Assembly (NCBI RefSeq): GCF_963921235.1
Contig: NC_086097.1
Span: forward strand, 26,166,001-26,230,000
DNA length: 64,000 nucleotides
Direction: 5' to 3'
Source of the DNA: Mobula hypostoma
Taxonomy: Eukaryota
Shown: piece after piece, positions 3,643 through 61,724 of the stretch
Numbering within the stretch: position 1 is the stretch's first letter
Layout of the letters: every line of letters begins with the position of its first letter
Position numbers and translations under genes: made by a program
Notes under the pieces: model-generated
What the model was told of the DNA's origin: nothing
Databases searched by the model: none
Seen by the model: only the letters and a program-made list of their open reading frames with translations

Positions 3643-4996
3643 GCCTTCATGATTTTAAATAGTTCTAATATAACTCCCTTTAACTTTCTCCACTATTAGA
3701 ATGACATTGATGCTTTTATTACAAGGGATTGCGATACAGAATGCAGGAGGTCATGAGTTAGCTGTGCAGAATGATGGTCAGACCTTCATCAATATTCATT
3801 TTGGACCGTTTTTATAAAGGGTATCATAAAATTAGGTTGAGTGAACATTCAATGCGAAAAAATAGGTTAACTTTTTGAGTCATTGAGACTTGGGAACTGA
3901 TTTTGGTGGTTGTGAAACCAAATGCAATATATCAAGAAAATTATCAGTCGGAATACTGTGGAGAATTTTACAACCTTCAGATTGTTCATTTAAAAGAAGC
4001 CACCTATGACAGTCTATCATCCTCCATTAAGTACTTATCTCCAGCATAAGGCTCAAACCCACATCTTTCTGACTAAGTGACAAGAATGCTGCCACGAAAC
4101 TAAGTCTGATTCCAATGGAAATTTAAAATAATTTCAGTAATTAATGGATATGTTTTTCCTTTTCCTTAGATGTGGGAAATTATCAAGTCATTCCCAAATA
4201 ATGAGAGATTTGACAAAGGCCCGTGATTGTAACATATATACTAGCTGATATTTCCCTTGTGTCTCTGAATAAGTTTATCATTTTGTACTGAGATAAATTT
4301 TCTCATTTGAGCCTATACAAATTCCTTTTAGATGTCATTAATATCAGAAGAATTCTTTTTATTTTTCCCTTATTATTCAATAAATGCAAACTAAGATCCT
4401 GAAATCATTAGCACATTAATATCCTGTCTTAATACTTCCCAGGATTTTGTAAAGTCCTAACCATTTAGCCACATGTGACCAATGCACTTAAATCACCATT
4501 AACGCTGCCACTTCATCAACTGCCTGTTTTGCAGTTGAGTTAGCTGAGCAGAGATTTATTTCCGAGAGCTGTAAGAGAATCTACTTAAAAAGGCAGACTG
4601 ATAATACACTAAATGATTCAGGATTGACCATAACATCTGTCCTGAGACTGTATTCTGGATAAGTACATGGATTGGGGAGGAGTATGGTCCAGGTGTGGAC
4701 TGATGGGACAAGAGAGAATAACAGTTGGCTCGGACTAGACCAAAAGACCATAAGATATAGGAGCAGAATTAAACCATTCAGCCCATTGAGTCTGCTCCAC
4801 CATTCCATCATGGCTGATTTATTATTGCTCTCAACCCCATTCTCCTCCCCTCTCCTGTAATCTTTGACACACTTCCTAATCAAGAACCAATCAATTTCCT
4901 CTTTAGATATACCCTGTGACCTGGCCTCCACGGCTTTCTGTAGCAGTTATGAATTTCAAAGATTCACGACATCTGGCTAAAGAAGTACTTCCTCAC

Positions 4997-5257
4997 AAAC
5001 AAGAGAAAACCTGCAGATGACGGAAATCCAAGCAACACACACAAAATGCTAAAGGAACTTAGCAGGCCTGGCAGCATCTATGAGCATGTACTTATCCAGA
5101 ATAGAGTTTCAGGAGAGATAATTTGATCAAATCTGAATCATTTAGTGTACAATTTGTCCTGATGAAGGGCCTTGGCCTGAAACATTGACTATTACTATTT
5201 TCCATAGATGCTGCCTGGCCTGCTGAGGTCCTCCGGCATTGTGTGTGTGTGACTTCC
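4997..5257. mobile_element. ORF-less inverted Penelope terminal-repeat unit
   Basis: Minus-strand arm 4997-5082 and plus-strand arm 5156-5257. Flanked by AAGTACTTCCTCAC (4983-4996) and AAGTACCTCCTCAC (5258-5271). Sits inside a CR1 3' end. Confidence 0.75.
5156..5189 (+). ncRNA. Minimal type I hammerhead ribozyme motif (helix III mutated)
   Basis: GTC-CTGATGA-AGGGCCTTGGCCT-GAAA-CA-TT-GAC: core intact, stem I GTC/GAC, stem II AGG/CCT. Confidence 0.65.
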
Positions 5258-6379: not shown

Positions 6380-9300
6380 AGATGCAGCTCCCAAGGTGCC
6401 AGAATCCTTGCCTGCTGGAAGTCCCAGATGACAGAGTTGTCCAGGATGTCATGGTCTGGAACCCAATCCTCAGGGACATACCCCTCCTAATCCACAAGAT
6501 AATGGACCCTGCCCCGCACCCAGCAAGATGCCAGAAAGTGGCGCACAGCCAGGGACCGATCCACCAAGCAGGGAGGAAGTGGGGGGGAAGGAACTGGAGC
6601 ACAGGGGGAGGAAGTCACCGGCTTGATAGCTTTTTCCACTATGAATGGTTCCATATAGCATAGAGCCAATGCAAAGCTCTTAGATTTCAAACGAAGATCT
6701 CTAGATGCCAACCAGACTTCCTCCCCCCCCCCACCCGGTCAAGCCAATCAGTCTGCCGGACATATTGTTTCTGAGGCTTGGCCCATCTCTACATGCACTT
6801 GTAACTGTTCAGCAGCAGGAACTCCCACATCAATCTCTTGGACAGGAAAGAGTGGTGACTGGAATCCCCTCTGGCATTCAAGGTGGACATGCCAGTGGAG
6901 AATGACTGAAGGCTAATGTGGGCAGTCTCTGCCCAAATCATTTGGAAGCTCCAAGTCTTAGGGTTGGAAGAAACAAGGCAGTGCAGGGCTGCCTCCAGCT
7001 CCTGATTCACTCTTTCAGTCTGATCATTAGATTGGGGGTAAGAACGAGATGAGAGGATGGCTGTAGCTCCCAAAAGAGAACAGAAAGCCTTTCAAAAACA
7101 GGGTGTGAAATATTGTCCTCGATCAGACACTATCTTAAGGGCGGCAGTCTCACGAGCCGACAAGAGCTGGGGAACAACAATGAAGTGGGCAGCTTTGGAG
7201 AACAGGTCCAAAAGCACCAGAATGGTTGTGTTTCCATTGGAGGGGGGAAGACCAGTGATGAAAGCACAGGCAGCAGGCAGAGTAAACCCATAGGGCACTG
7301 ATGTGATATCTTGTTCTGGGCACAAGTGACAAAGTCATGGGTATCCTGGGACACAGAATGTCACCAAAATCATCTCTTTATGAATTCCAGGGTCTGTTGA
7401 ATTCCCAGATGGTCAATCAGATGGGAAGAATGACCCCACTCCAACACTCTGGGGAGCACAGTGGCAGGGTCAAACAGCTGGTTGAAATGATCCCACCTGG
7501 GCCTGGATCTGACTTTTGGGCAGCCCTCACCTCTGCCTTTATCCCCCAAATCACCAGAGCAGCAATGCATGAGTGAGGAAGGTCGGGCTCTGAATTGGTG
7601 TTGTCCTCAGAGATGTCAAGCTAGAGGGACAGAGCACCCACCTTGGTATTCTTGCTGCCAGGTGGTAGGTGAGGGTGAAATTTATCTGCATAAAGAAAAG
7701 ACCCCAACAGGCTTGATGGGAGTTGAGTCCCTTGGTTTCCAAATTTAAGAGAGGTTCTTGTGATCTGTTCAAACCAGAAGGAATGCTCTTCCCCTCCAGC
7801 CAGTGTCACCATGCTTTCAGAGTCTTCTTAACAGCTAAGAAGTTCTTGGTTCCCAGCATCATAGTTAAACTCAGCAGGAGTCAAGCAATGGGAAATTAAA
7901 ACCCAGGGACGCAGCTGATAATCCACAGAAGAGCACTGGGAGAGTACAGCTCCAATGCCAGCATCTGATGCATCAACCTTAATGATGATTGGACAGGATG
8001 GGTCTGGATGTTGCAGGTCCGGGGCAGTGGTGAAGCATCATTCTAGTTCTGAGAATGCTTGGTCTGCTTCATTTGTCTGTAGGAATGCTGCAGAGGTCCT
8101 CTTGGTGGGAGCATTAATGGGGGCCACAATGGAACTGAAGTTCTTGATGAAGCAACAGGACAAGTTTGCAAATTTCATTAAGCGCCTTATCTGTTTGACC
8201 TTAGGTGGTTTGGGCCACTCTGTGACTGCTTGAACTTTCCATGGATCCATTTGAACACTGGAATGAGTGACTAAATAGCCCGAGAAAGGCACCTGCTCTT
8301 TTTGGAACTCACTCTCCTCTGATTGGCATAAAGGTTGTTCTTGAGGAGCCATCTGAAACCCTCCAGACATGCTGAATGTGTTCCCAGCAAGAACGGGAAT
8401 AGATAAGAATATCAACTACGTGCATAAAAACAAACTGATTCAGTATTTCCTGAAGCACATAATTGATCAGGGCCTGAAAAAAGAGCAGGGCGTTGGCCAG
8501 ACAAAATGGCATCATGAGAACTCTCAGTGGAACGCTGTCTTCCACTCGTTCCCTTCTCGGATATCTTGGAGAATATGGTTGCTCCTTGGAGATGTTCTAA
8601 CGCAATGGCAAGCAGGGGAAGAAGGTAGCGGTTCCACTCTGTGATTGTTGTCAGGAGCCAATAATCAATGCAGGGACAGAGTTTGCCATCCTTCTTGCTC
8701 ACAAAAAAGAAATCAGTCTCTGCTGGCGAGGTTGGCAGATGGATAAATCCTAAGGACAATACCTCCTTGATGTATTCTTCCATGGCCACCGTTTCAGGAC
8801 GAGAGAGGGAAAAGAGACAGTGTGGAAGCAGCAAGGTGGCCTTCTTCTTACTGAAGACCTCAAGAAAGTCAGAATATTCAGTTGGAATACAAGACAGGAC
8901 CACACTAGCAATTGGCACAGAAGAGGATATGCAGACAGGTAGACCGGCATGCCGGTCTCCATTCTTGGAGTGTCTTTAGGGACCAATCAATCCATGGGTT
9001 GTGTCAAGCTAACCAGGAAAGGCCAAGTATCAGCAGCAGTTCAGATGAATCAACAAAATAGAAGGACAGCTGTTCCCATAGTTGCCTTCTACCACATGTT
9101 GGAGTGGTTCTGTGGAAAGGTAGATCTTGCCGGTGCCCAGAGACCAACTGTCCAGAGCCTTGACATCGATATTCTGTCTCAATTACTGAGTCAAAACTCC
9201 CCACCTTTAAGCAGAGGTGTCCATGAGATTCCCGGCTGCCCCAGAGTCAGTAAATGCCTGAAGCTCATGGGTCTGGGATGTCCACAACAAAGAAGCTTGG
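6380..9300 (-). pseudogene. pol: Gypsy pol remnant (RT, RNase H, integrase, chromodomain)
   Basis: [17 protein letters not shown] (RT); [41 protein letters not shown] (integrase); VRGRVHYLVD (chromodomain). Many stops and frameshifts. Confidence 0.85.
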
Positions 9301-13419: not shown

Positions 13420-13518
13420 GAGTAATACACACAAAATGTTGGAGGAACTCAGCAGGCCAGGCAGCATCTATGGAAAAGAGTACAGTCGACATTTCAGGCC
13501 GAGTCCCTTCATCAGGAC
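13420..13518 (-). mobile_element. Solo Penelope terminal-repeat fragment starting at the hammerhead motif
   Basis: Homologous to 21946-22046; ACATAAAC at 13411 and 13517 may be a TSD. Confidence 0.75.
13485..13518 (-). ncRNA. Minimal type I hammerhead ribozyme motif
   Basis: Minus strand reads GTC-CTGATGA-AGGGACTCGGCCT-GAAA-TG-TC-GAC. Confidence 0.72.
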
Positions 13519-14941
13519 ATAAACGAAGTTCAGTATACAGTAACACTTGCAAAAGGCCTTGTTACTGAGGTAAAGCAAAACCTTCTGCTTAATTAAAACT
13601 GAGGAAGTTTCCAGAAAGAACAATGGTCATAAGCCACTAACAAAGCACAGTTCCAAATAAAGAGAGCAAAATCCTTCCAGCTCCCACACTGCTTCTATCA
13701 CCTGAGGAGGAATGTGGGGGAACTGCTTCATTCAGAGGGTGGTGCGAGTGTGAGGATTGGATAAGTACATGGATGGGAAGGGTATGGAGGGCCATGGTCT
13801 GGGCAGAATAATAGTTCAGCATGGGCTAGATGGACTGAAGGTCCTGTCTGAGTGTTGTAGCGCTCTATGACTTGGAAATTATTCACTAACCTAAAGACTT
13901 GATGTTCTTGAAAATGCAACATCAGTGATGTGTTCATTCAGAACACTCATTTGGCTCTCACTCCAGTCTATACATATTGTTCAAGACATAAAATATGAAC
14001 GTTCTTACTGTTGAAACTATGTATTAATGCCCTCATTATATTCAATCATATGTTGTGGCTTCAGCTAGTTTAATGTTGCTTTACAATCTGACAGGTTGTT
14101 GCATTTTCTGATACATAACAAACAACTATCACACTTCTGTAAGAGGCTGAAATTGTGTTTTCAGTTTGTAACCTCTGAAATCTGAAGAAGCCAAGCCTAT
14201 GATTAAACAAGAATATTTCAATTGTACTTTTGACTCCTTCTTTAAAGCCATAAACCAGCATCTTACCTGCCCCTCCACAATTAGACTTTGATCCAGAAGC
14301 CATACTGACCACTTATATTTACTGTTTGCCTGAAGTTCAAGTCTCCATGGCAATAGAAAAGAATTCCCATCAAGGGAAAAAAACAAAAGCATAATATTGG
14401 GTGAGACAGACTGCTTAGTATATTGACTAAATTTCCCACCAACACTGCTGGCTGCAAGCCACTCCACTTTGTCTCTGCACTATTCAGTTGGACCATTAGG
14501 AGCAATTAGCAACCATGATAGAATTGTGGGCCTCATTACTATCGTTATTATCTTAACATTAGCATGCTACGGGATAACTGCATGGTCATAATCACAAAAC
14601 TCAGAGGGGAAGTACATAGGTTTAATGGCACTCTTACTATGAATTACTTACTATTTCTGCTCATATTAAGTCTTATAACAAGTAGTTGTAAGACTCTTCC
14701 TTGCTGATTAACAGGGCGACATTTGAAAAATGGCTTGAAAATAGGGATTAATGTCTTACTTTCCATTCCCCAATTGATCTGACATATGATCAAAACATTC
14801 TTACAATGCCTAGCTCTAGATTGCTACCAACTGACAACGCTATTTGCAAAGTAATTAGGAGCCAAACTTTATTCAACTTAACAAATTTTGAAAACAGAAC
14901 TTTAATTCAGTTGGACCGTTAGGAGCAATTAGCAACCATGA

Positions 14942-16765: not shown

Positions 16766-17918
16766 AATATACACTCAGTGGCTAATTTATTGGATTCACC
16801 TGTACACCTTGTTAATATAAATATCGAATCAGCCAATCATGTGGCAGAACTCAATGCATAAAAGCATCCAGACATGGTCAAGAGGTTTACTTGTTGTCTT
16901 GTTGTTTGGACCAAATATCAGAATGGGAAAGATATGTGATCTCAGAGACTTTGACCCTGGAATGTTTGTTGGTGCCGTGGAAAGATTGTTGGTGGTTTGA
17001 GTATCTCAGGAACAGCTGATGGAAGCTGCAGAAAGACGTAAACTCAGCCAGCTCCATCATGGGCACCAGCCTCCCAGCATGGAGGACAACTTCAAAAGAT
17101 GATGCCTCAAAAAGGTGGCAACCCCATCATTAAGGACTCCCATCACCCAGAACATTCCTTCTTCTCATTGCTACCATCAAGGAGAAGGCACAAGAGCATG
17201 AAGACACATACTCAACATTTCAGGAATAGCTTCCACCATCAGATTTCTGAATGGACAATAAACCCAACCTCACTAATTTTTGCTCCTTTTTTTTTGCCCT
17301 CTTTTGCACTACTGATTTAATTTAAATTTTTGTACATACAGTGGATTCCTTTTATTTGGGACACATCGGGAACAGTACATTTTGGCTCAATTAAGCGGCT
17401 GCTCCTATTAGCCGAAATTTCATGGAAACATTTAAAAGGGTATAAAAAAGACAAACTACCATTTAGGGTGAATAACAAATTATGTTTTTAAATGAAATAC
17501 AGAACAAATTAAGACACCAGCGATACAACTACAGTACTATAAAACTGTGTATTGGCTCCCAATAGTTATCGATGGAGGAATTCATCCAGTGTATGTGGCT
17601 GTGTGCTTTCAATTGACTGTAAATGAATCCTCCGTCCTGATCAAAAAGGCACAGCAGCGCCTTTATTTCCTGCGGAGCAGCAAGAAAGCTCACCTCTGTC
17701 CCAGGATACTGACGGACTTTTACCGCTGTGCCATTGAGAGCATACTCACCAACTGCATCCCAGTGTGGTATGGTAATTGTCCCGTATCAGACCACAAAGC
17801 ACTGCAGCGTATGGTGAAAACTGCCCAGCAGATTATCGGCACCCAATTGCCCACCATTGAGAACATCTACCATAAACGCTGCCTAGGCAGGGCGAAAAGC
17901 ATTATCAAGGATGCATCT

Positions 17919-18453
17919 GAGCACTGGATCCCCACAAAAGAGGAGAGTGGTAGTGATAGGGGACTCGATAGTTAGAGGTGCAGATAGGAGGTTCTGTGGT
18001 TGTGACAGAGAATCCAGGATGGTTTGTTGCCTCCCAGGTGCCAGGGTCAAGGATGTCTCTGATCGGTTGCATGACATTCTGAAGTGGGAGGGTGATCAGC
18101 CAGATGTCACGGTGCACATCAGTACCAATGACGTAGTAAGGAAGAGTGAGGAGGTCCTGGAGAGTGAGTATAGAGAGCTTGGTAGGAAGTTGCAAAGCAG
18201 GACCTCAAGGGTGGTAATCTCAGGATTGCTACCTGTGCTACGTGCCAGTGAGGGTAGGAATAGGATGCTCTGGAGGATGAACAAGTGGCTGAGGAACTGG
18301 TGTAGGGGGCAGGGTTTCAGATTTCAGGATCATTGGGACCTCTTCTGGGGCAGGTGGGACCTGTACAAAAGAGATGGGTTACACTTGAACCACAGGGGGA
18401 CCAATATCCTTTCAGGGAGGTTTGTTAGTGCTATTGGGGAAGCTTTAAACTAG
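17919..18453 (+). pseudogene. CR1 ORF1 C-terminal SGNH/GDSL esterase domain (5'-truncated)
   Basis: VVVIGDSIVRG (block I), CLPGARV, HISTND, RDGLHLN (DxxH). Confidence 0.88.
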
Positions 18454-18455
18454 AC

Positions 18456-21380
18456 TTGCAGGGGGATGGGAACCAGAGTGCCAGAGCTGACAGTGTGGCT
18501 GGGGTGAAAATAAATTATGTTAAAAGTTCAAGCAAATCTGCTAATAGAAAGGTTGTGAGTGGTGGTAAAAATCTTCTGAGGTGTATATATTTCAATGCTG
18601 GGAGTATTGCGGGGAAGGTGGATGAGTTGAGGGTGTGGATTGACACGTGGAATTATGACGTTATAGCAATTAGTGAAACTTGGCTACAGGAGGGGCAGGA
18701 CTGGCAGCTTAATATTCTAGGGTTCCGATGTTTCAGATGTGATCAAGGCAGAGGAATGAAAGGTGGGGGAGTAGCATTGCTTGTTAGGGAAAATATTACA
18801 GCAGTGCTCAGGCAGGACAGATTAGGGGGCTTGTCTACTGAGTCCTTATGGGTGGAGCTGAGAAACAGGAAAGGTATGGCCACATTAGTGGGATTGTATT
18901 ACAGACCACCCAATAGTCAACGAGAATTGGAAGAGCAAATCTGCAGAGAGATAGCAGGCAACTGCAGGAAACATAAAGTTGTGGTGGTAGGGGATTTTAA
19001 TTTTCCATATATTGATTGGGACTCCCATACTGTTAGGGGTCTAGATGGTTTAGAGTTTGTAAAATGTGTTCAGGAAAGTTTTCTAAATCAATATATAGAG
19101 GGACCAACTAGAGGGGATGCAATATTGGATCTCCTGTTAGGAAACGAGTTAGGACAAGTGACAGAAGTCTGTGTAGGGGAGCACTTTGGTTCCAGTGATC
19201 ATAACGCCATTAGTTTCAACTTGATCATGGACAAGGATAGATCTGGTCCTAGGGTTGAAGTTCTGAACTGGAAGAAGGCCAAATATGAAGAAATTAGAAA
19301 GGATCTAAAAAGCGTGGATTGGGACAGGTTGTTCTCTGGCAAGGATGTGATCGGTAGGTGGGAAGCCTTCAAAGGAGAAATTTTGAGAGTGCAGAGTTTG
19401 TATGTTCCTGTCAGGATTAAAGGCAAAGTGAATAGGAATAAGGAACCTTGGTTCTCAAGGGATATTGCAACTCTGATAAAGAAGAAGAGGGAGTTGTATG
19501 ACGTGTATAGGAAACAGGGAGTATATAAGGTACTTGAGGAGTATAAGAAGTGCAAGAAAATACTTAAGAAAGAAATCAGGAGGGCTAAAAGAAGACATGA
19601 GGTTGCCTTAGCAGTCAAAGTGAAGGATAATCCAAAGAGCTTTTACAGGTATATTAGGAGCAAAAGGATTGTAAGGGATAAAATTGGTCCTCTTGAAGAT
19701 CAGAGTCGTTGGCTATGGGCGGAACCAAAGGAAATGGGGGAGATCTTAAATAGGTTTTTTGCGTCTGTATTTACTAAGGAAACTGGCATGAAGTCTATGG
19801 AATTAAGGGAAACAAGTAGTGAGATCATGGAAACTGTACAGATTGAAAAGGAGGAGGTGCTTGTTGTCTTGAGGAAAATTAAAGTGGATAAATCCCCGAG
19901 ACCTGACAGGGTGTTCCCTCGGACCTTGAAGGAGACTAGTGTTGAAATTGCAGGGGCCCTGGCAGAAATATTTAAAATGTCGCTGTCTACAGGTGAGGTG
20001 CCGGAGGATTGGAGAGTGGCTCATGTTGTTCCGTTGTTTAAAAAAGGATCGAAAAGTAATCCGGGAAATTATAGGCTGGTAAGTTTAATATCGGTAGTAG
20101 GTAAGTTATTGGAGGGAGTACTAAGAGACAGAATCTACAAGCATTTGGATAGACAGGGACTTATTAGGGAGAGGCAACATGGCTTTTTGCGTGGTAGGTC
20201 ATGTTTGACCAATCTATTGTAGTTTTTCGAGGAGGTTACCAGGAAAGTGGATGAAGGGAAAGCAGTGGATATTGTCTACATGGACCTCAGTAAGGCCTTT
20301 GACAAGGTCCCACATGGGAGGTTAGTTAGGAAAATTCAGTTGCTAGGTATACATGGAGAGGTGGTAAATTGGATTAGATATTGGCTCAATGGAAGAAGCC
20401 AAAGAGTGGTAGTAGAGAATTGCTTCTCCGAGTGGAGGCCTGTGACTAGTGGTGTGCCACAGGGATCAGTGCTGGGTCCATTGTTATTTGTCATCTATAT
20501 CAATGATCTGGATGATAATGTGGTAAATTGGATCAGCAAATTTGCTGATGATACAAAGACTGGAGGTGTAGTGGACAGTGAGGAAGGTTTTCAGAGCCTG
20601 CAGAGGGACTTGGACCAGCTGGAAGCATGGGCTGAAAAATGGCAGATGGAGTTTAATACAGACAAGTATGAGGTATTGCACGTTGGAAGGACAAACCAAG
20701 GTAGAACATACAAGGTAAATGGTAGGGCACTGAAGAGTGCAGTGGAACAGAGGGATCTGAGAATACAGATACAAAGTTCCCTAAGAGTGTCGTCACAGGT
20801 AGATAGGGTCGTAAAGAGAGCTTTTGGTACATTGGCCTTTATTAATCGTAGTTGAGTATAAGAGCTGGAATGTTATGATGAGGTTGTATAAGGCATTGGT
20901 GAGGCCGAATCTGGAGTATTGTGTTCAGTTTTGGTACCAAATTACAGGAAGGATATAAATAAGGTTGAAAGAGTGCAGAGAAGGTTTACAAGGATGTTGC
21001 CGGGACTTGAGAAACTCAGTTACAGAGAAAGGTTGAATAGGTTAGGACTTTATTCCCTGGAGCGTAGAAGAATGAGGGGAGATTTGATAGAGGTATATAA
21101 AATTATGATGGGTATAGATAGAGTGAATGCAAGCAGGCTTTTTCCACTGAGGCAAGGGGAGAAAAAAACCAGAGGACATGGGTTAAGGGTGAGGGGGGAA
21201 AAGTTTAAAGGGAACATTGCGGGGGCTTCTTCACACAGAGAGTGGTGGGAGTATGGAATGAGCTGCCAGACGAGGTGGTAAATGCGGGTTCTTTTTTAAC
21301 ATTTAAGAATAAATTGGACAGATACATGGATGGGAGGTGTATGGATGGATATGGTCTGTGTGCAGGTCAGTGGGACTAGG
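18456..21380 (+). pseudogene. CR1 ORF2 APE endonuclease + reverse transcriptase with few lesions
   Basis: IAISETWL, YYRPP, VGDFNFP, SSDHNAI (EN); QHGFLRGRSCLTNL, SKAFDKV, GVPQGSVLGP, KFADD (RT). In-frame TAG at 20220-20222; frameshifts near 20850, 20935 and 21220. Confidence 0.92.
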
Positions 21381-22010
21381 CAGAAAATGGTTCGGCACAA
21401 CCAAGAAGGGCCAAAAGGCCTGGTTCTGTGCTGTAGTTTTTCTATGGTTTCTATGGTTTCTAAGGCTGTGTGCTTAGCCCATTGCTGTTTACACTGCTAA
21501 CACATGACTGTGCAGCCAGATTCAAGGGGAACCTGATCGTTAAATTTGCAGATGATACCACAGTGGTGGGGCTCATCAGCAAAAATGATGAAACAATGTA
21601 CAGGGAGGAGGTCAAACACCTAGAGAGCTGGTGTAGGGATAACAACTTGATGCTTAATGTCACCAAAACCAAGGAGATGATCGTTGATTTCAGACGGTAT
21701 CAGCCTGAGCACACACCCCTCAGCATCAGCGGCTCCACAATGGAGAGAGTGGAAAACATCGTTCCTTGGGGTGCAGATCTCGGACAATCTCACCTGGTCC
21801 AGGAACACCACTTTGGGATTGTGAAACGGGCCCAGCAGAGATTGCACTTTCTGAGGAAGCTTAAACAAGCATCACTCCCCACTAACATCTTAGCTACATT
21901 CTACAGAGACAAAAACAACAGGAATTCTGCAGATGCTGGAAATTCAAGCAACACACATCAAAGTTGCTGGTGAACGCAGCAGGCCGGGCAGCATCTCTAG
22001 GAAGAGGTAC

Positions 22011-22046
22011 AGTCGACGTTTCAGGCCGAGACCCTTCGTCAGGACT
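22011..22046 (-). ncRNA. Minimal type I hammerhead ribozyme, consensus-intact
   Basis: Minus strand AGTC-CTGACGA-AGGGTCTCGGCCT-GAAA-CG-TC-GACT: full core, stems I and II, GUC triplet, palindromic minimal helix III (ACGT). Confidence 0.82.
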
Positions 22047-22393
22047 AACTGAAGGAAGAGTTAGTAAGAGATTTGAAAGTGGGAGGGGGAGGGGGAGATC
22101 CAAAATGATAGGAGAAGACAGGAGGGGGAGGGATGGAGCCAGGAGCTGGACAGATGATTGGCAAAGGGGATATGAGAGGATCATGAGACAGGAGGCCCGG
22201 GGAGAAAGACAAGGTTCCCCCCCGCCCCCGTCTTTCTCCCCGGGACTCCTGTCGCATGATCCTCTCATATCCCCTTTGCCAATCACCTGTCCAGCTCTTG
22301 GCTCCATCCCTCCCCCTCCTGTCTTCTCCTATCATTTTGGATCTCCCCCTCCCCCTCCCACTTTCAAATCTCTTACTAACTCTTCCTTCAGTT

Positions 22394-22429
22394 AGTCCTG
22401 ACGAAGGGTCTCGGCCTGAAATGTCGACT
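22394..22429 (+). ncRNA. Minimal type I hammerhead ribozyme motif
   Basis: AGTC-CTGACGA-AGGGTCTCGGCCT-GAAA-TG-TC-GACT. Confidence 0.78.
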
Positions 22430-24172
22430 GTACCTCTTCCTAGAGATGCTGCCTGGCCTGCTGCGTTCACCAGCAACTTTTATGTGTGTTGCTTACATTC
22501 TACAGAGGCGTGGTTGAGAGTGTGCTGATCTTTTGCATCACAGCCTGGCACTCCAGCTGCAGTGCTGTCGACAAAAATGCCTTGCAGAGTGTGGTTAGGG
22601 GAGCAGAGAAGGTTATTAGGGTCTCCCTACCTTCTGTCCAAGACCTCTTTCAGAGTCGATGCCTCCAGAAGACACAGTACATCATTAAAGACCCCTCACA
22701 CCCTCTCCATGAACTGTTTGTTCTTCTGCCATCAAGCAAACGTTACAGGAGCATCAAAACTAAAACCACAGGGCTACTAAACAGCTTCATCCCACAGGCA
22801 GTCAGACTGCTAAATAGCTGCTCTACCTGACTCTGCTTTGGACACTTTTAACTTGCACTGGACACTTATAACTTGATTTTAACTGACATGTGACTGTTGT
22901 GTTTTACTATTTATTGTTATGTTTATTAATTAGTGTTGCGTTTGTTATGTTATGATTGCACTGCTCCTGAGAAACGCTGTCTCATTCTGCCCTGCAGAAC
23001 TGATGTACGGTTAGAATGACAATGAAGTTTTTTGAATCTTGAATCTCACCTTAACCATGGACTTTTTACTCTCCTCCCATCCGGTAGGTGCTACAGGAGC
23101 CTCCGCTCCCACACCAGCAGGCACAGGAAGAGCTTCTTCCCTGAGGCTGTGACCCTGCTGAACCTCTCATCACAGCACAGCGCTAAGCAGTATTGCATCC
23201 GTATTGTACTGTCTCAGTACTTTTATATTTGTGTGCTGTAGCACTTTTTATTCGCAGTTATTTGTAAATAACTCTATTCTTTTTATTTCCAGTCAGATGC
23301 TAAATGCATTTCATTGGCTTTGTATCTGTACTCGGCACAATGACAATAAAGTTGAATCTAATTAAACTAATCTGAAATCATGCAGACACTGATGCTGATA
23401 ACAAACTGCCTTCGTACAATGCTTTCAATGATTGCATCCTCCAAATCTTCAATTTCATTGTAACGTTCAAGATGATTGTTAATACCTTCAAATTCTTTGT
23501 AGTATCTAACTTGTTGAAGTAGTAAAGTCATTTGATTTTCACTCATGGCTGTTTTGGGCATCTCCAAGCCTGAATGCTTGAAACTACAATAAGCAAAACA
23601 GTTCTAAATTGTTTTACTGCGACTCCTTGCCAACTACTGTTGATAAAAATTGCTGCTTTTTGAATACAAACTCACACAACTGATGCTATTTAAAAACTGT
23701 TCGCTCGAAGCACAGTGTTTGCGGCTGACGCAAGTTAGAAACTGGTAACAGTCTCCTTTTCCAATTAAGCGCCATAATGTCCCAAATAACTGAACAGAAT
23801 CCCAGATATTTTCTTAATTAGTTTTTGTTCTTTAAGTGTTGTCCTAAATATGCAGCTACCCCAATTAACCAGTGGCTCAATTAACTGGAATCCACAGTAT
23901 TTCTTATTGTAATTTTTGGATTTTTATTATTATGTGTTGCAATGTACTGCTACAGCAAACCAACAATTTTCACAGCCTACTGTATGACAGTGATACTAAA
24001 CCTGATTCTGAGTGTGATTTTCAACAGTCTCTAGAGTTTATAGAGAATGGAAAAACAAAAAAAATCCTGTGAGTGAAAATGTCTTGTTAATGAGATAGGT
24101 TAGATTAATAAGAAGGCATATGGTGTGTAGGCCTTCATCAACCATCGGATTGAGTTCGAGCCAAGAGGTAAT

Positions 24173-34775: not shown

Positions 34776-36328
34776 GAAGTGGAAGAGATGGACACAAGTA
34801 CAATGCTTAAAAGGCATTTGGACAGATACATCGCTAGGAATGGTTGAGAGTAACACAAGTTAAATAAATAAACTGACAAACAAATATATGACTGGATGAA
34901 CGAATAAACAAACAAACAAACAAATAAATAAATGGGATTCAATCAGGAAGGCATCTTGGTCGGCAGGGGTAAATTGGGCTGAATAGTCTGTTTCAGCCCA
35001 CTGAGTCAGCAACAACCATCAGCCACCCTTTTACACTAATTGTCCAATAATCCCAGCAAAGACTCAGCAAATCTATAGAATCCTGTTGTAGTTACTATTC
35101 AGTAGATTTGCAGAGTATGCCCACAAGAAAATGAATCTCAGGGTTGTATATGGTGATATATATGTACTTTGATAATAAATTTACTTTGAACTTTTTTCTC
35201 CACATATCCTTATTAATTCCTCCCAGATTCTACCACTTTCCTACATACTGGACGAAGAGCAATTTATAGAGGTCAAATAACCCAAAGAAACCAGGACACT
35301 TAAGAGGAAAGCCACATGGTCATAGGGAGAACGTGCAGACTCCACACAGACAGAAGCCAAAGTCAGGATTGAATCCATGTCTCTGGCTCTGCAGAGCAGT
35401 AGCATTTCTCATGAACCATTTCCTTGATCTGAGAAAGTCAAGAAGGGAGGTACAGAGAGCTGGCAGCAGAAGTGCTGGTTAATGAAATTATGAAATTTAA
35501 ACACCTTTCCTAAATCAAAACAACAAATGTGGAATCTCTCTGCATTGGGATAATAAGTGGCTGTTTGCCTAGTGGCAGCAAACAATGAGAGATTCACAAC
35601 TGAGAGTCTGCGTTAGAACAAATAAATTTGCCCAGGGAGCTACATTTTAAACAAGTAATCTGGTTCAAGGATGAAGAAACTGGAAAAAAATGTTCACATG
35701 GCACATTGAGCAGACAGTAGTCAGTAGCAGAGATTTTATGTTCTATCTCTGAACCAGAATCAGATTTAATATCACCAGCATAAGTCATGAAATTTGTTAA
35801 CTTTGCAGCAGCAGTATAATACAATACATGATAAACTTTTTAAAAAATGAATTACAGTAAGTATATATATGTATATTAAGTAGTTAAGTCAAAATAAGCA
35901 GTGCAAAAACAGAAATTAAAAGTCTGAGGTAGTGTTCATGGGTTCAATGTCCATTTAGAATGGGTTCAATGTCCATTCTGATGGCAGAGGTGAGGAAGCT
36001 ATTCTTGAATCGCTGAGTGTGAGCCTTCAGACTTCTGTACCTCCTTTCTGATGGTAACAATGAGAAAAGGGCACATCTTGGGTTACATGCGGAAGAAATT
36101 TCACTCTGCTGTAAACACTTCAAATGAGACTCTGGAGAATACATCACATAAGCAAGCATACTCAATCTGTATCAGCAAGAATCCTATGGCACAAGAGGTT
36201 CTCCAGATGCTGGAAATCTTCAGTAACACACCCAAAATGCTGGAAAAAACTCAACAAATCAGGGAGCAAAACACACAAGGAGCTGGAGGAACTCAGCAGG
36301 TCAGGCAGCATCTATGGAGAGGAATAGA

Positions 36329-36366
36329 CAGTCAATGTTTCAGGCTGAGGCCCTTCATCAGGACTG
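36329..36366 (-). ncRNA. Minimal hammerhead motif in the PLE 3' terminal repeat
   Basis: Minus strand CAGTC-CTGATGA-AGGGCCTCAGCCT-GAAA-CA-TT-GACTG. Confidence 0.68.
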
Positions 36367-36436
36367 GAAACAAAGGGGAAAGATGCCAGAATAAGAAGGT
36401 GAGAGGAGAGGAAGGAGTACAAGCTAGAAGCCCAGA

Positions 36437-37382
36437 AGACTATAGGACATAGGAACAGAATCAGGCCATTCAGCCCATTGACTCTGCTCCGCTATTCCAT
36501 CATGGTTGATCCTAGATCTGACTCAACCCCATACAGCTGCCTTCTCACCATATCCTTTGATGCCCTGACCAATCAGGAAAAGATCAACTTCCGCCTTAAA
36601 TATATGCACAGTCTCCACCGCAGTCTATGGCAGAACATTCCACAGATTGAATACGCTCTGGCTAAAAAATTCCTCCTTACCTCTGTTCTGAAGGGTTGCC
36701 CCTCAATTCCGAAGCTGTGCCCTCTAGTTCGGGATACCCCTACCATAGGAAATATCCTCTCCACACCCACCCTGTCTAGTCCTTTCAACATTCGGTAGGT
36801 TTCAATGAGATCCCCCTGCATTCTTCTAAATTCCAGTGAGTACAGGACTAAAGCTGTTAAACGCTTCTCAAATGGTAACTCCTTCATTCCTGAAATCATT
36901 CGTGAACTTTCTCTGGACTCTCTCCAATGAAAACATCCCTTCTGAGATTTGGGGCCCAAAACTGTTGACAGTATTGCAAATGCAGCCTGACTAGTGTCTT
37001 ATAAAGGCTCAGCATTATCTCCTTGCTTTTATATTCTACTCCCCTTGAAATAAATGCCAACATTGCATTTGCCTTCTTTACCACAGACTCAACCTATAAA
37101 TTAACCTTCTGGGAGCCTTGCATGAAGACTTTTAAATCCCTCTGCACCTCTGATGTTTGAATCTTCTCCCCATTTAGATAATTGTTTCTTTTACCAAAAT
37201 GTATTATCATACATTTCCCAACGCTGTAGTCCATCTGCCACTTTATTGACCATTCTTCCAATTTGTCTAAGTCCTGCTGCAACCATTTTGCTTCCTCTGT
37301 ATTACCTCTACTTATCTTTGTATCATCTGCAAACTTTGCCGCAAAGCCATCAATTCCATGATCCAAATCATTGACAAACAAT
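36437..37382 (-). mobile_element. CR1 LINE, 5'-truncated, inserted in the PLE
   Basis: KFADDTKI, KKANAMLAFISRG and GDLIETYRMLKG peptides; CR1 3' UTR and tail. Confidence 0.9.
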
Positions 37383-37599
37383 AAGTGAAGTCAGGTGCGT
37401 GAGGGAAGGGGGTTGAAGTAAGGACCTGGGAGTTGATAGGTGGAAAAGGTAAAGGGCTGGAGAAGAATGAATCTGATAAGAGAAGAAAGTGGACTTTGGG
37501 AAAAGGGGAAGGAAGAGGGGCACCAGGGAAAGGTGAGGAGAAGAGGTAAGAGGGAGGCCAAACTGGATAATTGAAGAAGAGGGAGGGAAAATTTACTGG

Positions 37600-39390
37600 A
37601 AATTGGAGAAATCGATGTTCATGCCTTCAGGTTGAAGACTACCTAGATGGATTATGAGGTGTTGCACTTCCAACCTGAGAGTGGCCTCATTGTGGCAGAA
37701 GAGGAGGCAATGGACTGACATGTTGGAATGGGAATAGAGATTGGACTTAAAATGGACCGAAAGTGCTCAACAAGTCAGTCCCCCGATCTATGTCAGGTCT
37801 CAGCAATGAAGAGTAGGCTACGTTGGGAGCATTGGACCCCAATAGATTTACAGGTTATGTGTTGCCTCACCTGGAAGGATTGTTTGAGGCCTTGAATGGT
37901 GGTAAGTGAGGAGATGAATGGGCATGTGTAGCACTTCTTCCGCTTGCAGGGATAAGAGCCAGGAGAGAGACTAGTGGGGAGGGACGAATAATCAATGGAT
38001 CACAGAAGGAGCAATTCCAGTGGGAAGTGGAGAGTGGGTGGAGGTAAAGATGTGTCTGGTGGTAGGGTCCCATTAAAGATGGTGTAAGCTGCAGAGAATG
38101 ATGTGTTGGATGAGGAGGCTCAGGGGTGGTACATAAGGACAAGAGAAACTCTCTCCCTATTAAGGTGGCAGGAAGATGGGGTGAGCATGGATGTTCAGGA
38201 AATGGAGGAGATGCAGGTGAGGGCAGTATCAGTAGTGGAGGAAGGGAAACCCCATTGTTTGAAGAAAAAGGATACCTCTGATGTGCTGGAGAGGGAAAAC
38301 ACATCCTGGGAACAGATGCGGCAGAGACGAAGGAATTGAGAAAAGAGATAGCATTTTTACAGGAGACAGGATGGGAAGAAGCATTGTCAAGATAGGCGTA
38401 GGTATCAGTAGGTTTACACGAGATGACAGTAGACGGTTTTTCTCCAGATATGGAGATAGAGATATCAAGAAAGAGGAGGGAGATGTCAGAAATGGACCTA
38501 GTGAATTTAAGGGCTGGGTGGAAGTTGGAGGCAAAGTTGATGAAATTGATGAACTCAGCATAAAGCAGCACTAATGCAGTTAGCAATGTAGTGCAGAAAG
38601 AGTTGGTGAGCACTACCTGAGAAGGTTTGGAAAAAGCAACATAGCCAATGAAAAGGCAGGCATAGCTGGGGCCCAGGTGGGTGCCCATGGCTATACCTTG
38701 AGTTTGGGGAAAGTGGGAGGAGCTGAAAGAGAAACTGTTGCGGTGTGAGGCCCAGTTCTGCCAGATGGAGGAGGATGGTGGAAGGGAACTGGTCAGAGTC
38801 TGTTGTTGAGAAAGAAGAGAGAGCTTTCAGGCCTTCTTGATAGGGGATAGGAGTGTATAAGTTATCCATGGTGAAAATGAAGTGATTGGGGCAAATGAAT
38901 TGGAAGTTGTTGAGGAGATTGCGAGCATGTGAAGTGTTGTGGGCCTACCTAGACAGTCAGGTTTGTAGGAGGTAGAAATGAGCAGTGCAGAATTAGGGAA
39001 CTGGTGGCAGTGGATGAGAGAACTACGGGGGTGATGGTGCAGAAAACAATGGCCTGATGGTCCTAAGGGAGGTGCCTGAGAGTTGCCGCCTGGCCTCAGC
39101 AAGGTAGACATCAGTCTGCCAGACTACAACAACACCCTCTTTGCAGGTTTGATGGTGAGGTTGGGATTGGTGTGGAGAGAGTGGAAGGTAGCGTGTTCAG
39201 AGGGGGCAAGTTATGAAGAAGAGAGAGGAGTGCTGAAAATAAGTGGGGTGCCCAAAAAGAGGAGCAGGTTTGGAGATGAGAGAATAGGTCATTGATGCGG
39301 GGTGTGGAATCCTGGCCAAAGAAGTGGGCTTGGAGACAGATGCGATGGAAGAAGAGCTCAGTGTTGTAGCGGGCACGGAACTCACTGAGG
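37600..39390 (-). pseudogene. Penelope RT + GIY-YIG endonuclease remnant
   Basis: MGTHLGPSYACLFIGY, FASNFHPALKFT, FLDISISI, KPTDTYAYLD, LYTPIPYQEGL and ELFFHRICLQAHFF match PLE ORF motifs; heavily frameshifted. Confidence 0.85.
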
Positions 39391-39619
39391 TGAGCAAGCA
39401 ACATCTATGGCGAGGAACAAGTTAGTCAACATCTCATGCCGAGACCCTGCATTCGGAATGGAAAGGAAGGCAGCAGACCCCATGATACGTTCCTTATAGA
39501 TCTAAGATTGTCAGCAGATAATTGCAGTTTTAGAGATTTTAGAGACTGAAGGACTTGTTCATCAGAGATCAGATTTTTTTGGGTAATTGGCTCTAGAATA
39601 AAGAAACAATTATTGCGGA

Positions 39620-41085: not shown

Positions 41086-42588
41086 CTACTTTTTCCATGG
41101 ATATTTCTTGCTGCTCTTGTCTGATTCAAGCAGTCCTTTGTCTTTTTGCACAGCCAGAGAGAAGTCCTTACACGACAAGTCACAGTTCACAGATATTTGA
41201 AGTTCATTTTTGATCAGCTATGTGCTGCATCTGTTTCTTGAGTCTGACCATTTCATGGTCATCAGACAGAAGATCCTCCCTACAAAGGCATTTGAGCCTG
41301 GCACACTGAGGACAAATGAGACAATCCTGAACATGTTGATCAAGTTGGCTTTCCCTGTGTTTTGGAAAACTGCCACCCACTTCTCACTGGTGGATTTTGT
41401 GGTATCCTGTCTAGCTTTCTGTATTTCCTCCCAGCTAGCACAAAACTCTTCATAGAGTTGGTCCATATTGACTGTCTCTGGCATTTTGGGGGGGCAGCCA
41501 CCACCTGCTCAAGGTCAGTGAAGGAGAGCTCCTCATAGAGGCCGATTGGTTTCAGTTTCATCATTACGGTTTCTGGTGAGAAATCAAACCACTTGTCAGT
41601 GTATGTAATGACAGAGTCATAGAACTTCACAAAGTCCTGTTGCTGCTTGGACCTTTGTGCTGGCACTTGTTTGTCCGTCACCTGCTTAGTCTGGTATCCA
41701 AAAAAACTGTCCTGTTTTTGCTGAAGCATCTTCATTTTGAACTTTCGGACTTCCTCATAAACATCTGTGATGCAGAGCTTTGTTTCCTCCAGCTGTTTTA
41801 CGAGTTGGTCAAAAACACACCCCACGTTGTGGAAAAAGCACAGACGAATTTCAGTAGCTCCAGTTTGTTCTTCATCCTCAAAAATCCTCTTCAGTGCCAC
41901 AGGACAGGTCTCAAAGGGACCTGAAGTATGACGTAAGAGCTGGCCAGCTCTGCAGGAGAAGTTCGACAGCTGGATGAAGAGAGAGCCATCGTGTGCAAAC
42001 ATGACGCAGAATTTCATGCCACTCAATGTCAACAAAGGCAAAAAATGAACACAGTTCCTCCCTTCGGGAGGCAAATATTAAGAAGTGGCTGTAGACCTTT
42101 AGAACAATTGTCTCAATATCCATTGACAGCTGATCACAGGCGTGCTTGCAGGCGTTGTGAGCTATGTGAGCTGGGCAATTAGCTTTCAGAATGTGATTGT
42201 TGGCACTGCTCAATAACTGGTAAACTGAGTAGGGTTTTCCAAAGTTTACATTGGCATTATCTGCTGCATAGGCTGTGAGGTGTCTAATATCCAGTTCATA
42301 CTTTTCCAGACAATTCATCAGAGCTTGATGTTTGCCATTTGCAGTTTCATCACTGTCTTCATAAAAGTCAAGTAACTTACACTGTACTCCATCAGACACG
42401 GAGAAATATCTCACGCACACTGGAAACATTTTTCTCTCCCTTGTTTGAGGCATCGGTGGCAACTGCGAAATACACGGGCTCCGCGAGCTCACCTTCTCCT
42501 GTCGGGCTGACGGGCTTAACCCACGTCTTTTTGCTTCCCATTGCTTGTTAAAGCTGCACAATCTTTTCTTTTTTGCAGGTTTATCCAT
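41086..42588 (-). pseudogene. hAT transposase (frameshifted, internally deleted)
   Basis: MDKPAKKKR start; AYAADNANVNFG; NCPAHIAHN (CxxH); CTRWLS; VPGSNAFVGRIF C-terminal motif; spread over three reading frames. Confidence 0.88.
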
Positions 42589-42814
42589 ATTTGCATATGC
42601 CAAACCGACCGAACAACACCAGACATTACTGAAACTTTTTGGTTTGGCAGGAATTGGCAAAATGTAGCACAGAACTGATGTGCATAAGGGGACCTCTGAT
42701 TGTATGACAGGTGAATCACTCATGCATGGCATCAACAGCACATGCAACATGCACGCACGCCGTTGCATCAGATCTGGGACCTGTCTGTAAGCACGCCTTC
42801 TGGTGATTACAGAG

Positions 42815-43260
42815 TAGTAGGTAGATAGACAGATAGATATACTTTATTAATCCCAAGGGAAATTTGGTTTCGTTACAGCTGCACCAACCAAGAATAGAGC
42901 GTAAATATAGCAATACAAAAACCACCAACAATCAAACAACAAAATGCAAACTATGCCAGATGGAAAATAAGTCCAGGACCAGTCTATTGGCTCAAGGTGT
43001 CTGACCCTCTATGGGAGGAGCTGCACGTTCGATGGCCACAGGCAGGAACAACCTCCCGTGCCGCCAAGTGTTGTATCACGGTGGAATGTGGCCGAAGTCC
43101 AACAGTAAAAAGTTCAATATCCAGTCTGCAAACACGTTCCTCGATCGTAATATGTCCCGGATTGCACCATCTGTTGTTAACCAGATCAGTAAGCACCCAA
43201 CTCCTTTACGCTTACCGCTCTCAGTGCACTTCCGGTGGTATTACCCACCGAACTCCTCTT
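42815..43260 (-). mobile_element. Internally deleted Rex1 fragment (EN piece fused to 3' end) inside the hAT
   Basis: VNNRWCNPGHITIEERVC..DIELFTVGLRP runs straight into ...GSDTLSQ*, then a 3' UTR like 10770-10910 and a (TATC)n tail. Confidence 0.75.
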
Positions 43261-48695: not shown

Positions 48696-48886
48696 TGCTG
48701 GAGGAACTCAGCAGCTCAGGCAGCATCTATGAAAGTGAACAAACTGTCGGCAGTTGATGAAGGGTCCTGGCCCAATACTTAAACTGTTTATTCCCTTCCA
48801 CAGATGCTGCCTGACATGCTGAGCTCCTCCAGCATTTTGTGTGTGTTACTCTAGATGTCCAGCATCTGCAGAATTTCTTGTGTTTA
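48696..48886. mobile_element. Inverted Penelope terminal-repeat unit with degraded hammerhead
   Basis: TGCTGGAGGAACTCAGCA...GCAGCATCT arm faces AGATGCTGCC...GCTCCTCCAGCA arm; TTGATGAAGGGTCCTGGCCCAATA is a mutated core. Confidence 0.7.
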
Positions 48887-49699
48887 TGATTCTGGATTAC
48901 AAGTCTATAAGACACGGGAGCAGAATTAAGCCATTTGGCCCATCAAGTCTGCTCCGCCACTCCATTATGGCCGATCCATCATCCCTCTCAAACCCATTCC
49001 TATGCTGCTCCCTGTAACCTTTGACAGCCTGATTAATCAAGAGCCTATCAACCTTGCACTTTAAATATACCCAATCACTTGGCTTCCATAACTGTCTGTG
49101 GCAATTAATTTCACAGATTCCCCACCCTCTCTCTGGCTAAAGAAATTCTTCCTCATCTCTGTTTCAGATGGTCCTTCATTTCTAAGGCTGTGCCTTCCGG
49201 TCCTAGACCCCGCCCCCATAGGAAACATCCTCTCCACGTCCATTCTATACAGGCCTTTCAATATTTGATAGGTTTCAGTGAGATCCCCCACTCCTCCCCA
49301 TCTTGTGTCCATATTCTCAATCCTGATGCCCCCATCAGTGGAAAGAGTTTTTCTCTTTCCTTCATACTAAATCTTCCCTAACTCTAAACACCTCCATCAT
49401 GTTCAAGTCCTAAACTTCCGTGGAGACACATGAGACGGCGGGAAGTTGGTGCAAAGGTAGCACCAACTCCAAAGAGGGCAGAAGGTGAAACGTGGAGGAA
49501 CACACAATCTGCTGGAGGAACCCAACAGACTGAGCAGAACGTGTGGGAGGAAAGAAAGTGATGACCTTTCGGGTCAAATTTCTAAGCTGAGGAAAATAGA
49601 AGGATGTCACATAAGTTAATCCTTTTAACCATCATATCATTGGTAATCCTGCACTGCACCTTTACTTGAGCTATGGTACCCAGAGATGAACACTGGTAT

Positions 49700-54492: not shown

Positions 54493-54524
54493 CGGAATCA
54501 CAGAATGACTCAGGACAACTTGTA

Positions 54525-54700
54525 TAAAATGCTGGAGGAATTCACAGGTCAGGCAGCATCTACGGAGAGGAATAAACAGTCAATATTTTGGGCCAAGACC
54601 AGCCCATCTCGAAATGTTGACTGTTTATTCTTCCTGAGTTCCTCCAGCATTTAGTATGTGTTGCTCTGGATTTCCAGCATTTGCAGAATCTCTTGTGTTC
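54525..54700. mobile_element. Inverted Penelope terminal-repeat unit (hammerhead 5' half deleted)
   Basis: AATAAACAGTCAATATTTT arm faces GAAATGTTGACTGTTTATT arm. Confidence 0.7.
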
Positions 54701-57790: not shown

Positions 57791-57865
57791 CTCTAATCTT
57801 TTGAGAGAATGGTTCCAGCTCTTGTAACATCTGTATTGTTTAAGGGTATTCTGCTGATGAAGAAT

Positions 57866-58087
57866 ACACACAAAATGCTGGAGGAACACAGCAGGTCAGG
57901 CAGAAACAAATAGTCAACATTACAGGCCAAGAAGGGACCCCTTCCCACTGTTTGCAGTCCTGATGAAGGGTCTTGGCCTGAAACATGACTGCTTGCTTCC
58001 AGTCATAGATGCTGCCTGACCTGCTGAGTTCATCCAGCATTTTGTGTGTGTGGCTCGACATTTCCAACATCTACAGAACTTCCTGCC
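57866..58087. mobile_element. Inverted Penelope terminal-repeat unit with 16-bp TSD
   Basis: TCTGCTGATGAAGAAT at 57850-57865 and 58088-58103; inverted arms in between. Confidence 0.85.
57954..57992 (+). ncRNA. Minimal hammerhead motif (1-nt loss at the cleavage triplet)
   Basis: GCAGTC-CTGATGA-AGGGTCTTGGCCT-GAAA-CAT-GACTGC with a 6-bp stem I. Confidence 0.58.
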
Positions 58088-61444: not shown

Positions 61445-61690
61445 GAAGTCAGCAAGTCAGGAAGTATCTACGCAAAGGAATAAATAATTGACATTTAGGA
61501 CCGAGACCCTTCATTGGTCTGAGTCGACGTTCCCCTACCTCCCCCCTTCATTGGGACACATCCCAATGAAGCATCTTGGCCCAAAATGTCGAATGTTTGT
61601 TCCCCTCCGTAGATGCGGCCTGACCTGCTGAGTTACTCCAATATTTTGCGTGTGTGCTCTGGATTTTCAGCATCTGCAGAATCTCATATT
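61445..61690. mobile_element. Inverted Penelope terminal-repeat unit, both hammerheads degraded
   Basis: TGACATTTAGGACCGAGACCCTTCATTGG arm faces CCAATGAAGCATCTTGGCCCAAAATGTCGA arm. Confidence 0.7.
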
Positions 61691-61724
61691 TACTATCAAA
61701 GTGGGCCGCGGAACAATACCGTAG

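Follow-up and report, generated by a model that had tools for sequence, protein, structure and literature searches.

The 585-nt insert at 21909-22493 of the window (the whole 64,000-nt stretch of Mobula hypostoma DNA analyzed here) is a head-to-head insertion of the ordinary sort by a very common Penelope-like element (PLE) whose copies were cut short, an arrangement that is already in print. We are highly confident that it is a by-product, known in kind, of insertion by an endonuclease-bearing (EN+) PLE. Only a shade less firmly do we hold the full account, in which the insert is a single, young, dead-on-arrival insertion of an EN+ PLE of ray-like cartilaginous fish, Neptune-like by its linker, that left a head-to-head truncated pair.

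Boundaries and layout of the insert

The insert splits a LINE remnant and is flanked by two exact copies of a 14-nt target site duplication (TSD). Its parts and immediate surroundings are as follows.

21464-22830, plus strand: truncated non-LTR (LINE) reverse transcriptase (RT) remnant split by the insertion, from Pfam and frame continuity
21895-21908, plus strand: left TSD, 14 nt, exact match to the right copy
21909-21946, minus strand: one-sided PLE "tail", 38 unpaired nt at the left end with no counterpart in the right arm
21947-22210, minus strand: left arm, a 5'-truncated PLE 3' UTR end, sense on the minus strand
22211-22229, plus strand: centre between the arms, 19 nt, of which about 12-17 nt would be 3' UTR extending the right arm and 2-7 nt junction
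22230-22493, plus strand: right arm, a 5'-truncated PLE 3' UTR end without tail, sense on the plus strand
22494-22507, plus strand: right TSD, 14 nt, exact match to the left copy

The exact 14-bp TSD around a 585-bp insertion, reported in the initial annotation, was confirmed: its repeat score was 14, whereas none of 150 random boundary pairs reached 9. When one TSD copy was kept, the host RT frame was continuous, and four paralogous stretches of RT sequence from the window could be aligned with it, showing that the repeat is a true TSD. The host remnant, which we take to be of the Rex/Babar type, matched Pfam RVT_1 (E 3.4e-10) and ALKBH8_N (E 3.1e-12) in its left piece and had no match in its right piece. 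The two inverted arms of about 265 bp with 19 nt between them, likewise described before, were recovered as 21946-22210 and 22230-22494 with 7 mismatches in 265 positions; after removal of the base common to the TSD (21947-22210 and 22230-22493), 257 of 264 positions were identical. Overlooked before was the unpaired left end of 38 nt, which is the diagnostic PLE tail. With a family terminus at 21913 (see below), it consists of 34 nt of family tail and 4 variable nt.

Long inverted arms and the lack of an ORF would also suit a MITE or Foldback DNA transposon, but the insert has asymmetric ends, a TSD that is 14 nt long here and 12-16 nt among the copies, and arms that come from a retroelement 3' UTR. 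Seven differences between the arms, together with an exact TSD, are not expected of an assembly fold-back. A DNA transposon or an assembly artefact is thus highly improbable.

Assignment of the arms to a PLE 3' UTR

A protein search with the decayed frame 37870-38826 as the query recovered 8 proteins out of 3,030 candidates. Five of the 8 are gene models from Mobula or Hypanus, which indicates a ray-like genome. P0006, a Mobula gene model, comprises an RT end, a C-x4-C-x2-C linker, and a GIY-YIG motif, and it runs 53 residues beyond the usual ORF end into the inner end of the arm, with an identical stop register. Its C-terminus shared 10 of 12 residues with the peptide translated from 22212-22259, with 4 codons inside the centre, and 8 of 8 with the left-arm translation; none of 1000 shuffles was as good in either case, and the link between arm and 3' UTR is one at the protein level, through translated gene models and partly through a low-complexity proline run. 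P0004 showed a weaker read-through likeness to the arm (1 of 1000 shuffles as good). The Pfam scores of P0001 (RVT_1) and P0006 (GIY-YIG, E 4.6e-4) lay under the curated cut-offs.

Because P0006 reads into arm and centre and shares the stop register, each arm is assigned to the terminal ~300 nt of a ray PLE's 3' UTR, and the 19-nt "spacer" is probably for the most part the right arm reaching deeper into this UTR and not a loop by design. The read-through also bears out the PLE origin proposed in the initial annotation. Counted on P0006 (44 codons), the inner end of the arm lies ~130 nt past the ORF. A CX2-5CxxC linker between RT and endonuclease was present in P0003, P0004, P0006, and P0008 as well as in the decayed PLE ORF of the window, suggesting a Neptune-like source PLE; this linker is also reported from Nematis and hence is not decisive for Neptune (PMC8557442).

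Hammerhead motifs

One minimal type I hammerhead was located in each arm, on opposite strands, in agreement with the earlier claim.

22010-22047, minus strand: minimal type I hammerhead with a predicted cut after 22015 and an intact palindromic 15.2-16.2 pair
22393-22430, plus strand: minimal type I hammerhead, predicted cut after 22425, CpG decay at 22422

A motif descriptor, which had been proposed as a check, detected both. Only these two arm copies satisfied its strict rule among the six matches listed in the window, and in 30 first-order Markov resamplings there was no strict match, while loose ones numbered 0.5 per window. The descriptor found the conserved core and helices I and II in both motifs; the helix III loop was absent. 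Confirmation with Rfam, the other proposed check, failed: none of the 29 matches to Rfam models at E ≤ 1 was a hammerhead, although the descriptor finds both copies. Matches of Rfam miRNA hairpin models to the insert were all below gathering scores and were rejected as a generic long-hairpin effect. Both hammerheads carry G.U in place of G-C at 10.1-11.1 (register of PMC4209133), so that "consensus-perfect", as the minus copy had been called, is too strong. The C allele at the 10.1-11.1 position accounted for 32-40% of family depth in public contigs. In the plus copy, the palindromic 15.2-16.2 pair was lost through the CpG change at 22422.

Related copies in the window

About a dozen other fragments in the window derive from PLE ends that are older and related (69-81% alike). 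Five of these are fold-backs (4994-5257, 48696-48888, 54522-54698, 57866-58087, and 61446-61691). TSDs were identified for three of the five: 14 nt with 1 mismatch (4994-5257), 12 nt with 1 mismatch (54522-54698), and 16 nt without mismatch (57866-58087). In 48696-48888 and 61446-61691, the tail-less arm is degraded, and a repeat search at the boundaries revealed no TSD. All four TSD-bounded fold-backs, the focal one included, bear the tail on one arm only, and the other arm ends at or near a shared inner site. The junctions differ among all six fold-backs of the window, and none of the other five shares the focal one.

By eye, the TSD edge at tail-less ends (22494-22499, 57860-57865, and 54516-54521) resembles the family sequence that it replaces, which suggests microhomology at priming. 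About 60 nt of no assigned origin lie between the arms of 4994-5257. A lone tail-less PLE end at 13421-13528 has an intact hammerhead core (13518-13485, minus strand) and is truncated at the hammerhead 5' edge; its truncation point coincides with the site at which contig joints cluster (see below). TSD candidates with a score of 8 at the 13421 and 60353 copies were within the null (7 of 150) and were discarded.

The window also contains a decayed PLE ORF (39243-37596, minus strand; tblastn E 6e-89), which is flanked on either side by hammerhead-type ends, near 39400-39470 and 36190-36440. Alignment of the arm with 36150-36460 scored 165.5 against a maximum of 90 for shuffles, whereas the scores for 37340-37700 (94 versus 113) and 39250-39600 (83 versus 99.5) were not above those of shuffles. 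The region 39473-36190 (minus strand) has the appearance of a near-complete decayed PLE with RT, Cys linker, GIY-YIG, and 3' UTR. A LINE piece at ~37370-36440 apparently separates this element from its 3' end, which shows a partial direct duplication ahead of the tail at 36191-36265.

The family in public contigs

The reference 21700-22700 was compared with 4 of 24 listed public runs, i.e. the contig sets X1 and X2 and the raw-read runs X21 and X22. The sequences placed on it were 159,436 contigs from X1, 144,919 contigs from X2, no reads from X21, and 2 reads from X22; contig depth does not give copy number, and the organisms behind X1 and X2 may differ from the species of the window. Loose contig ends piled up at 21913 (474 contigs in X1 and 383 in X2) and at 22493 (106 contigs in X2), and these positions are thus two family-wide termini, 34 nt apart on the element. 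An exact 22-nt family motif had no match in metagenome and viral contig collections. The arms carry the identical letter at all 13 polymorphic family sites examined, so both are likely to come from one source element; the product of allele shares over the polymorphic sites was 0.01, a value that ignores linkage and is not a probability.

At least 1,022 joints occurred in X1 and X2 contigs. All 15 of those listed run from the left arm to the right arm at places other than the focal junction, and none of them dominates, the best depth being 780 versus millions. In eight of these listed joints, the starting point falls within 22043-22058, the hammerhead 5' edge, with the partner side at 22379-22400. 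A few recurred in X1, where 14 contigs had 22045->22395 and 8 had 22045->22396 (depths of 302 and 780). The cluster at the hammerhead 5' edge may be a real hot spot, an amplified mini-unit, or a detection bias, the last because older subfamilies lose their match to the reference there, with loose ends at 22046 and 22394.

These joints bear on the idea of a non-autonomous fold-back family, in which the 585-nt unit would be transcribed and re-inserted whole by PLE protein acting in trans. PLE ends can mobilize passenger DNA in trans, as described for an NRPS gene (PMC3846280), the depths of the recurring joints exceed the 10-30 of several single contigs, and about half of the listed joints (the eight given above) start at the same edge. 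The recurring joints, however, are not the junction of the focal element, and the cluster is possibly the detection bias just mentioned. Of 30 bins, the one at the centre had the least depth in X1 as well as in X2, with 2-5% of that of its neighbours, a deficit that could also stem from private changes there diverting family contigs to the left arm. In addition, all six fold-backs of the window have different junctions, and RT would have to pass through a hairpin of -566 kcal/mol. Such a family is improbable. Hardly more credit is given to a wider proposal, by which PLE protein would re-mobilize in trans some fixed-junction ray fold-backs, e.g. those turning at the hammerhead 5' edge, making them the inverted and MITE-like equivalent of retrozymes, the asymmetric arms recording separate priming of both nicked strands at two RT start sites.

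The distinct, protein-free mobile unit of the initial annotation is not supported, since the junctions are heterogeneous and the layout is that of published PLE insertions. The fallback that it had offered, a one-off product of PLE integration, and the youth that it had ascribed to the insertion were borne out.

Formation of the head-to-head pair

As a PLE by-product, the insert could have arisen in the following way. The GIY-YIG endonuclease of the PLE introduced a staggered cut of 14 nt into the old LINE, as the TSD shows, and reverse transcription would have proceeded from both target strands, starting close to the PLE RNA's 3' terminus. The top strand (21908) would have primed at the outer start site and given the left arm with its tail; the bottom strand (22494) would have primed some 34 nt upstream, at the inner of the two start sites, and given the right arm without tail. 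Both cDNA copies would have broken off at about 300 nt, with slightly more than 130 nt to go before the ORF, and joining of the truncated inner ends would have produced the head-to-head inverted pair. A hammerhead would be present in each arm only because the motif and the 3' terminus of the element are about 100-140 nt apart. In vitro, a PLE protein nicks and extends both target strands, two start sites delimit the tail, and the hammerhead ribozyme (HHR) is dispensable for insertion and inactive without protein (PMC11167929).

We lean slightly towards separate priming from the two nicked strands, because each arm contains sequence that is missing from its partner. Snap-back, in which one cDNA (or antisense RNA) folds back and primes its own copying, would equally make the insert a PLE by-product and is possible but rather unlikely as the mechanism. 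Self-priming by antisense RNA was proposed by Arkhipova et al. (PMC3846280), and a single template fits arms that are 97% alike and identical at 13 of 13 polymorphic sites. In three of the five older copies (57866-58087, 48696-48888, and 61446-61691), the tailed arm is at least as long as the other arm, as snap-back predicts, and these copies fit either model. Simple cDNA snap-back, however, makes one arm a subset of the other, whereas here the tail is found in the left arm only and extra inner sequence in the right arm only. Non-subset arms are also clear in 4994-5257 and probable in 54522-54698, and no palindrome was found at the focal junction.

Predicted folding of insert transcripts

RNA of the full insert was computed to form one hairpin of -566 kcal/mol (z -51). 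Both 3' ends of the arms point outward, so that on either strand the sense hammerhead is transcribed after its whole antisense. In an equilibrium model, which does not describe kinetics, the probability of stem I was 1e-42 to 1e-49 at all six prefixes tested on both strands. For single arms, the computed stem I probability did not exceed 0.49 and was usually near 0. The modelled dimer reached -12.1 (left) and -7.8 kcal/mol (right) versus -31.5 and -28.1 kcal/mol for free cofolding. Because the antisense is made first and the 264-bp hairpin zips first, the ribozyme in either full transcript is predicted never to fold. The fold model thereby agrees with the earlier suggestion that the long hairpin sequesters the ribozyme, and it speaks against the co-transcriptional switch suggested along with it, as stem I stayed below 1e-42 at each prefix. 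If transcribed, the fold-back RNA is a possible Dicer or ADAR substrate.

A functional co-transcriptional ribozyme switch or a retrozyme is a very unlikely role. The core letters are intact, and minimal PLE hammerheads are described as weakly active as dimers (PMC4209133) or with PLE protein (PMC11167929). Against this stand the position of each sense ribozyme downstream of its own antisense, with the stem I values given above, the lack of a same-strand partner for a cis dimer, the reported inactivity of single minimal HHRs (PMC4209133), and the location inside a dead LINE. The insert contains neither an ORF nor two ribozymes on the same strand.

Sequence neighbourhood

Pfam searches of 109 of 311 non-repeat frames revealed no host-gene exon, the matches being to retroelement domains or below cut-off; this is a weak test, and an intron location is compatible with it. 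At 17887-21281 (plus strand) lies a near-complete LINE, presumably of the CR1 type, in which an SGNH/GDSL esterase frame (Pfam E 3.8e-12) overlaps the first part of the endonuclease-RT frame but is read in a different frame. A decayed LTR-retrotransposon pol remnant occupies 7831-8975 (minus strand; RT_RNaseH_2 E 2e-15). Two long frames of 310 and 245 aa at 41340-42843 (minus strand) had no Pfam match and look like a decayed DNA transposase, which we assume to resemble that of hAT elements.

Comparison with known systems

A single locus carries little weight, and the useful point is the mechanism of PLE head-to-head insertion. This mechanism is unsettled: self-priming was proposed in 2013 (PMC3846280), and two start sites with nicking of two strands were described in vitro in 2024 (PMC11167929). 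Young ray insertions with arm-private sequence could discriminate between the models by counting, and the Mobula hypostoma genome appears to hold very many of them. A very large load of long hairpins could feed ADAR or Dicer. No described fold-back PLE family of rays or sharks was found in a search of openly accessible papers.

The insert combines a source with PLE RT and GIY-YIG (linked at the protein level), an inverted truncated copy, a 34-38-nt tail at one end, and a TSD. The rotifer element Pen2a_Av is reported with an inverted pLTR, a 31-bp one-sided tail, and a 9-10-bp TSD (PMC3846280); a head-to-head inverted copy with tail and TSD is called typical of EN+ PLEs (PMC8557442, Fig. 2), and the same pattern is given in a curation guide (PMC8969392). 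Common to these insertions and ours are the 5'-truncated inverted copy, the tail of 30-40 bp at one end, the single TSD around the insert, and the outward 3' ends (PMC3846280; PMC8557442). Unlike Pen2a_Av, both focal copies are truncated within the 3' UTR, so that no ORF is left, the TSD is 14 nt instead of the 8-10 nt given for the rotifer, and the junction lacks a palindrome.

The hammerheads share with the metazoan PLE minimal HHRs of Cervera and De la Pena (2014; PMC4209133) the core, an extra base between 9 and 10.1, a 4-5-bp helix I, the absence of loop 3, and, in the left copy, the palindromic 15.2-16.2 pair. That paper ascribes dual minimal HHRs on opposite strands, 100-700 bp apart, to truncated PLEs; the focal pair lies about 350 bp apart. 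The focal motifs differ by a short helix II (4 bp, two wobbles) and by the 10.1-11.1 G.U, and sharks and rays are not named in the accessible text of PMC4209133. PAc, a Poseidon element from Anolis (Frangieh et al. 2024, PMC11167929), likewise has two 3' start points that delimit the tail and an HHR near the 3' end. It belongs to another clade, the ray ORFs having a C-x4-C-x2-C, Neptune-like linker, and its HHR is described as overlapping the ORF start.

With metazoan non-LTR retrozymes (PMC7229834; bioRxiv 10.64898/2026.07.22.740005), the insert shares its non-coding nature, the type I HHR, and the relation to PLEs. Retrozymes are described as direct tandem arrays (PMC7229834; bioRxiv 10.64898/2026.07.22.740005; PMC6155905) with at least 2 same-strand HHRs, features absent from the insert, and assignment as a non-LTR retrozyme was rejected; the focal arms are inverted, with one HHR per strand.
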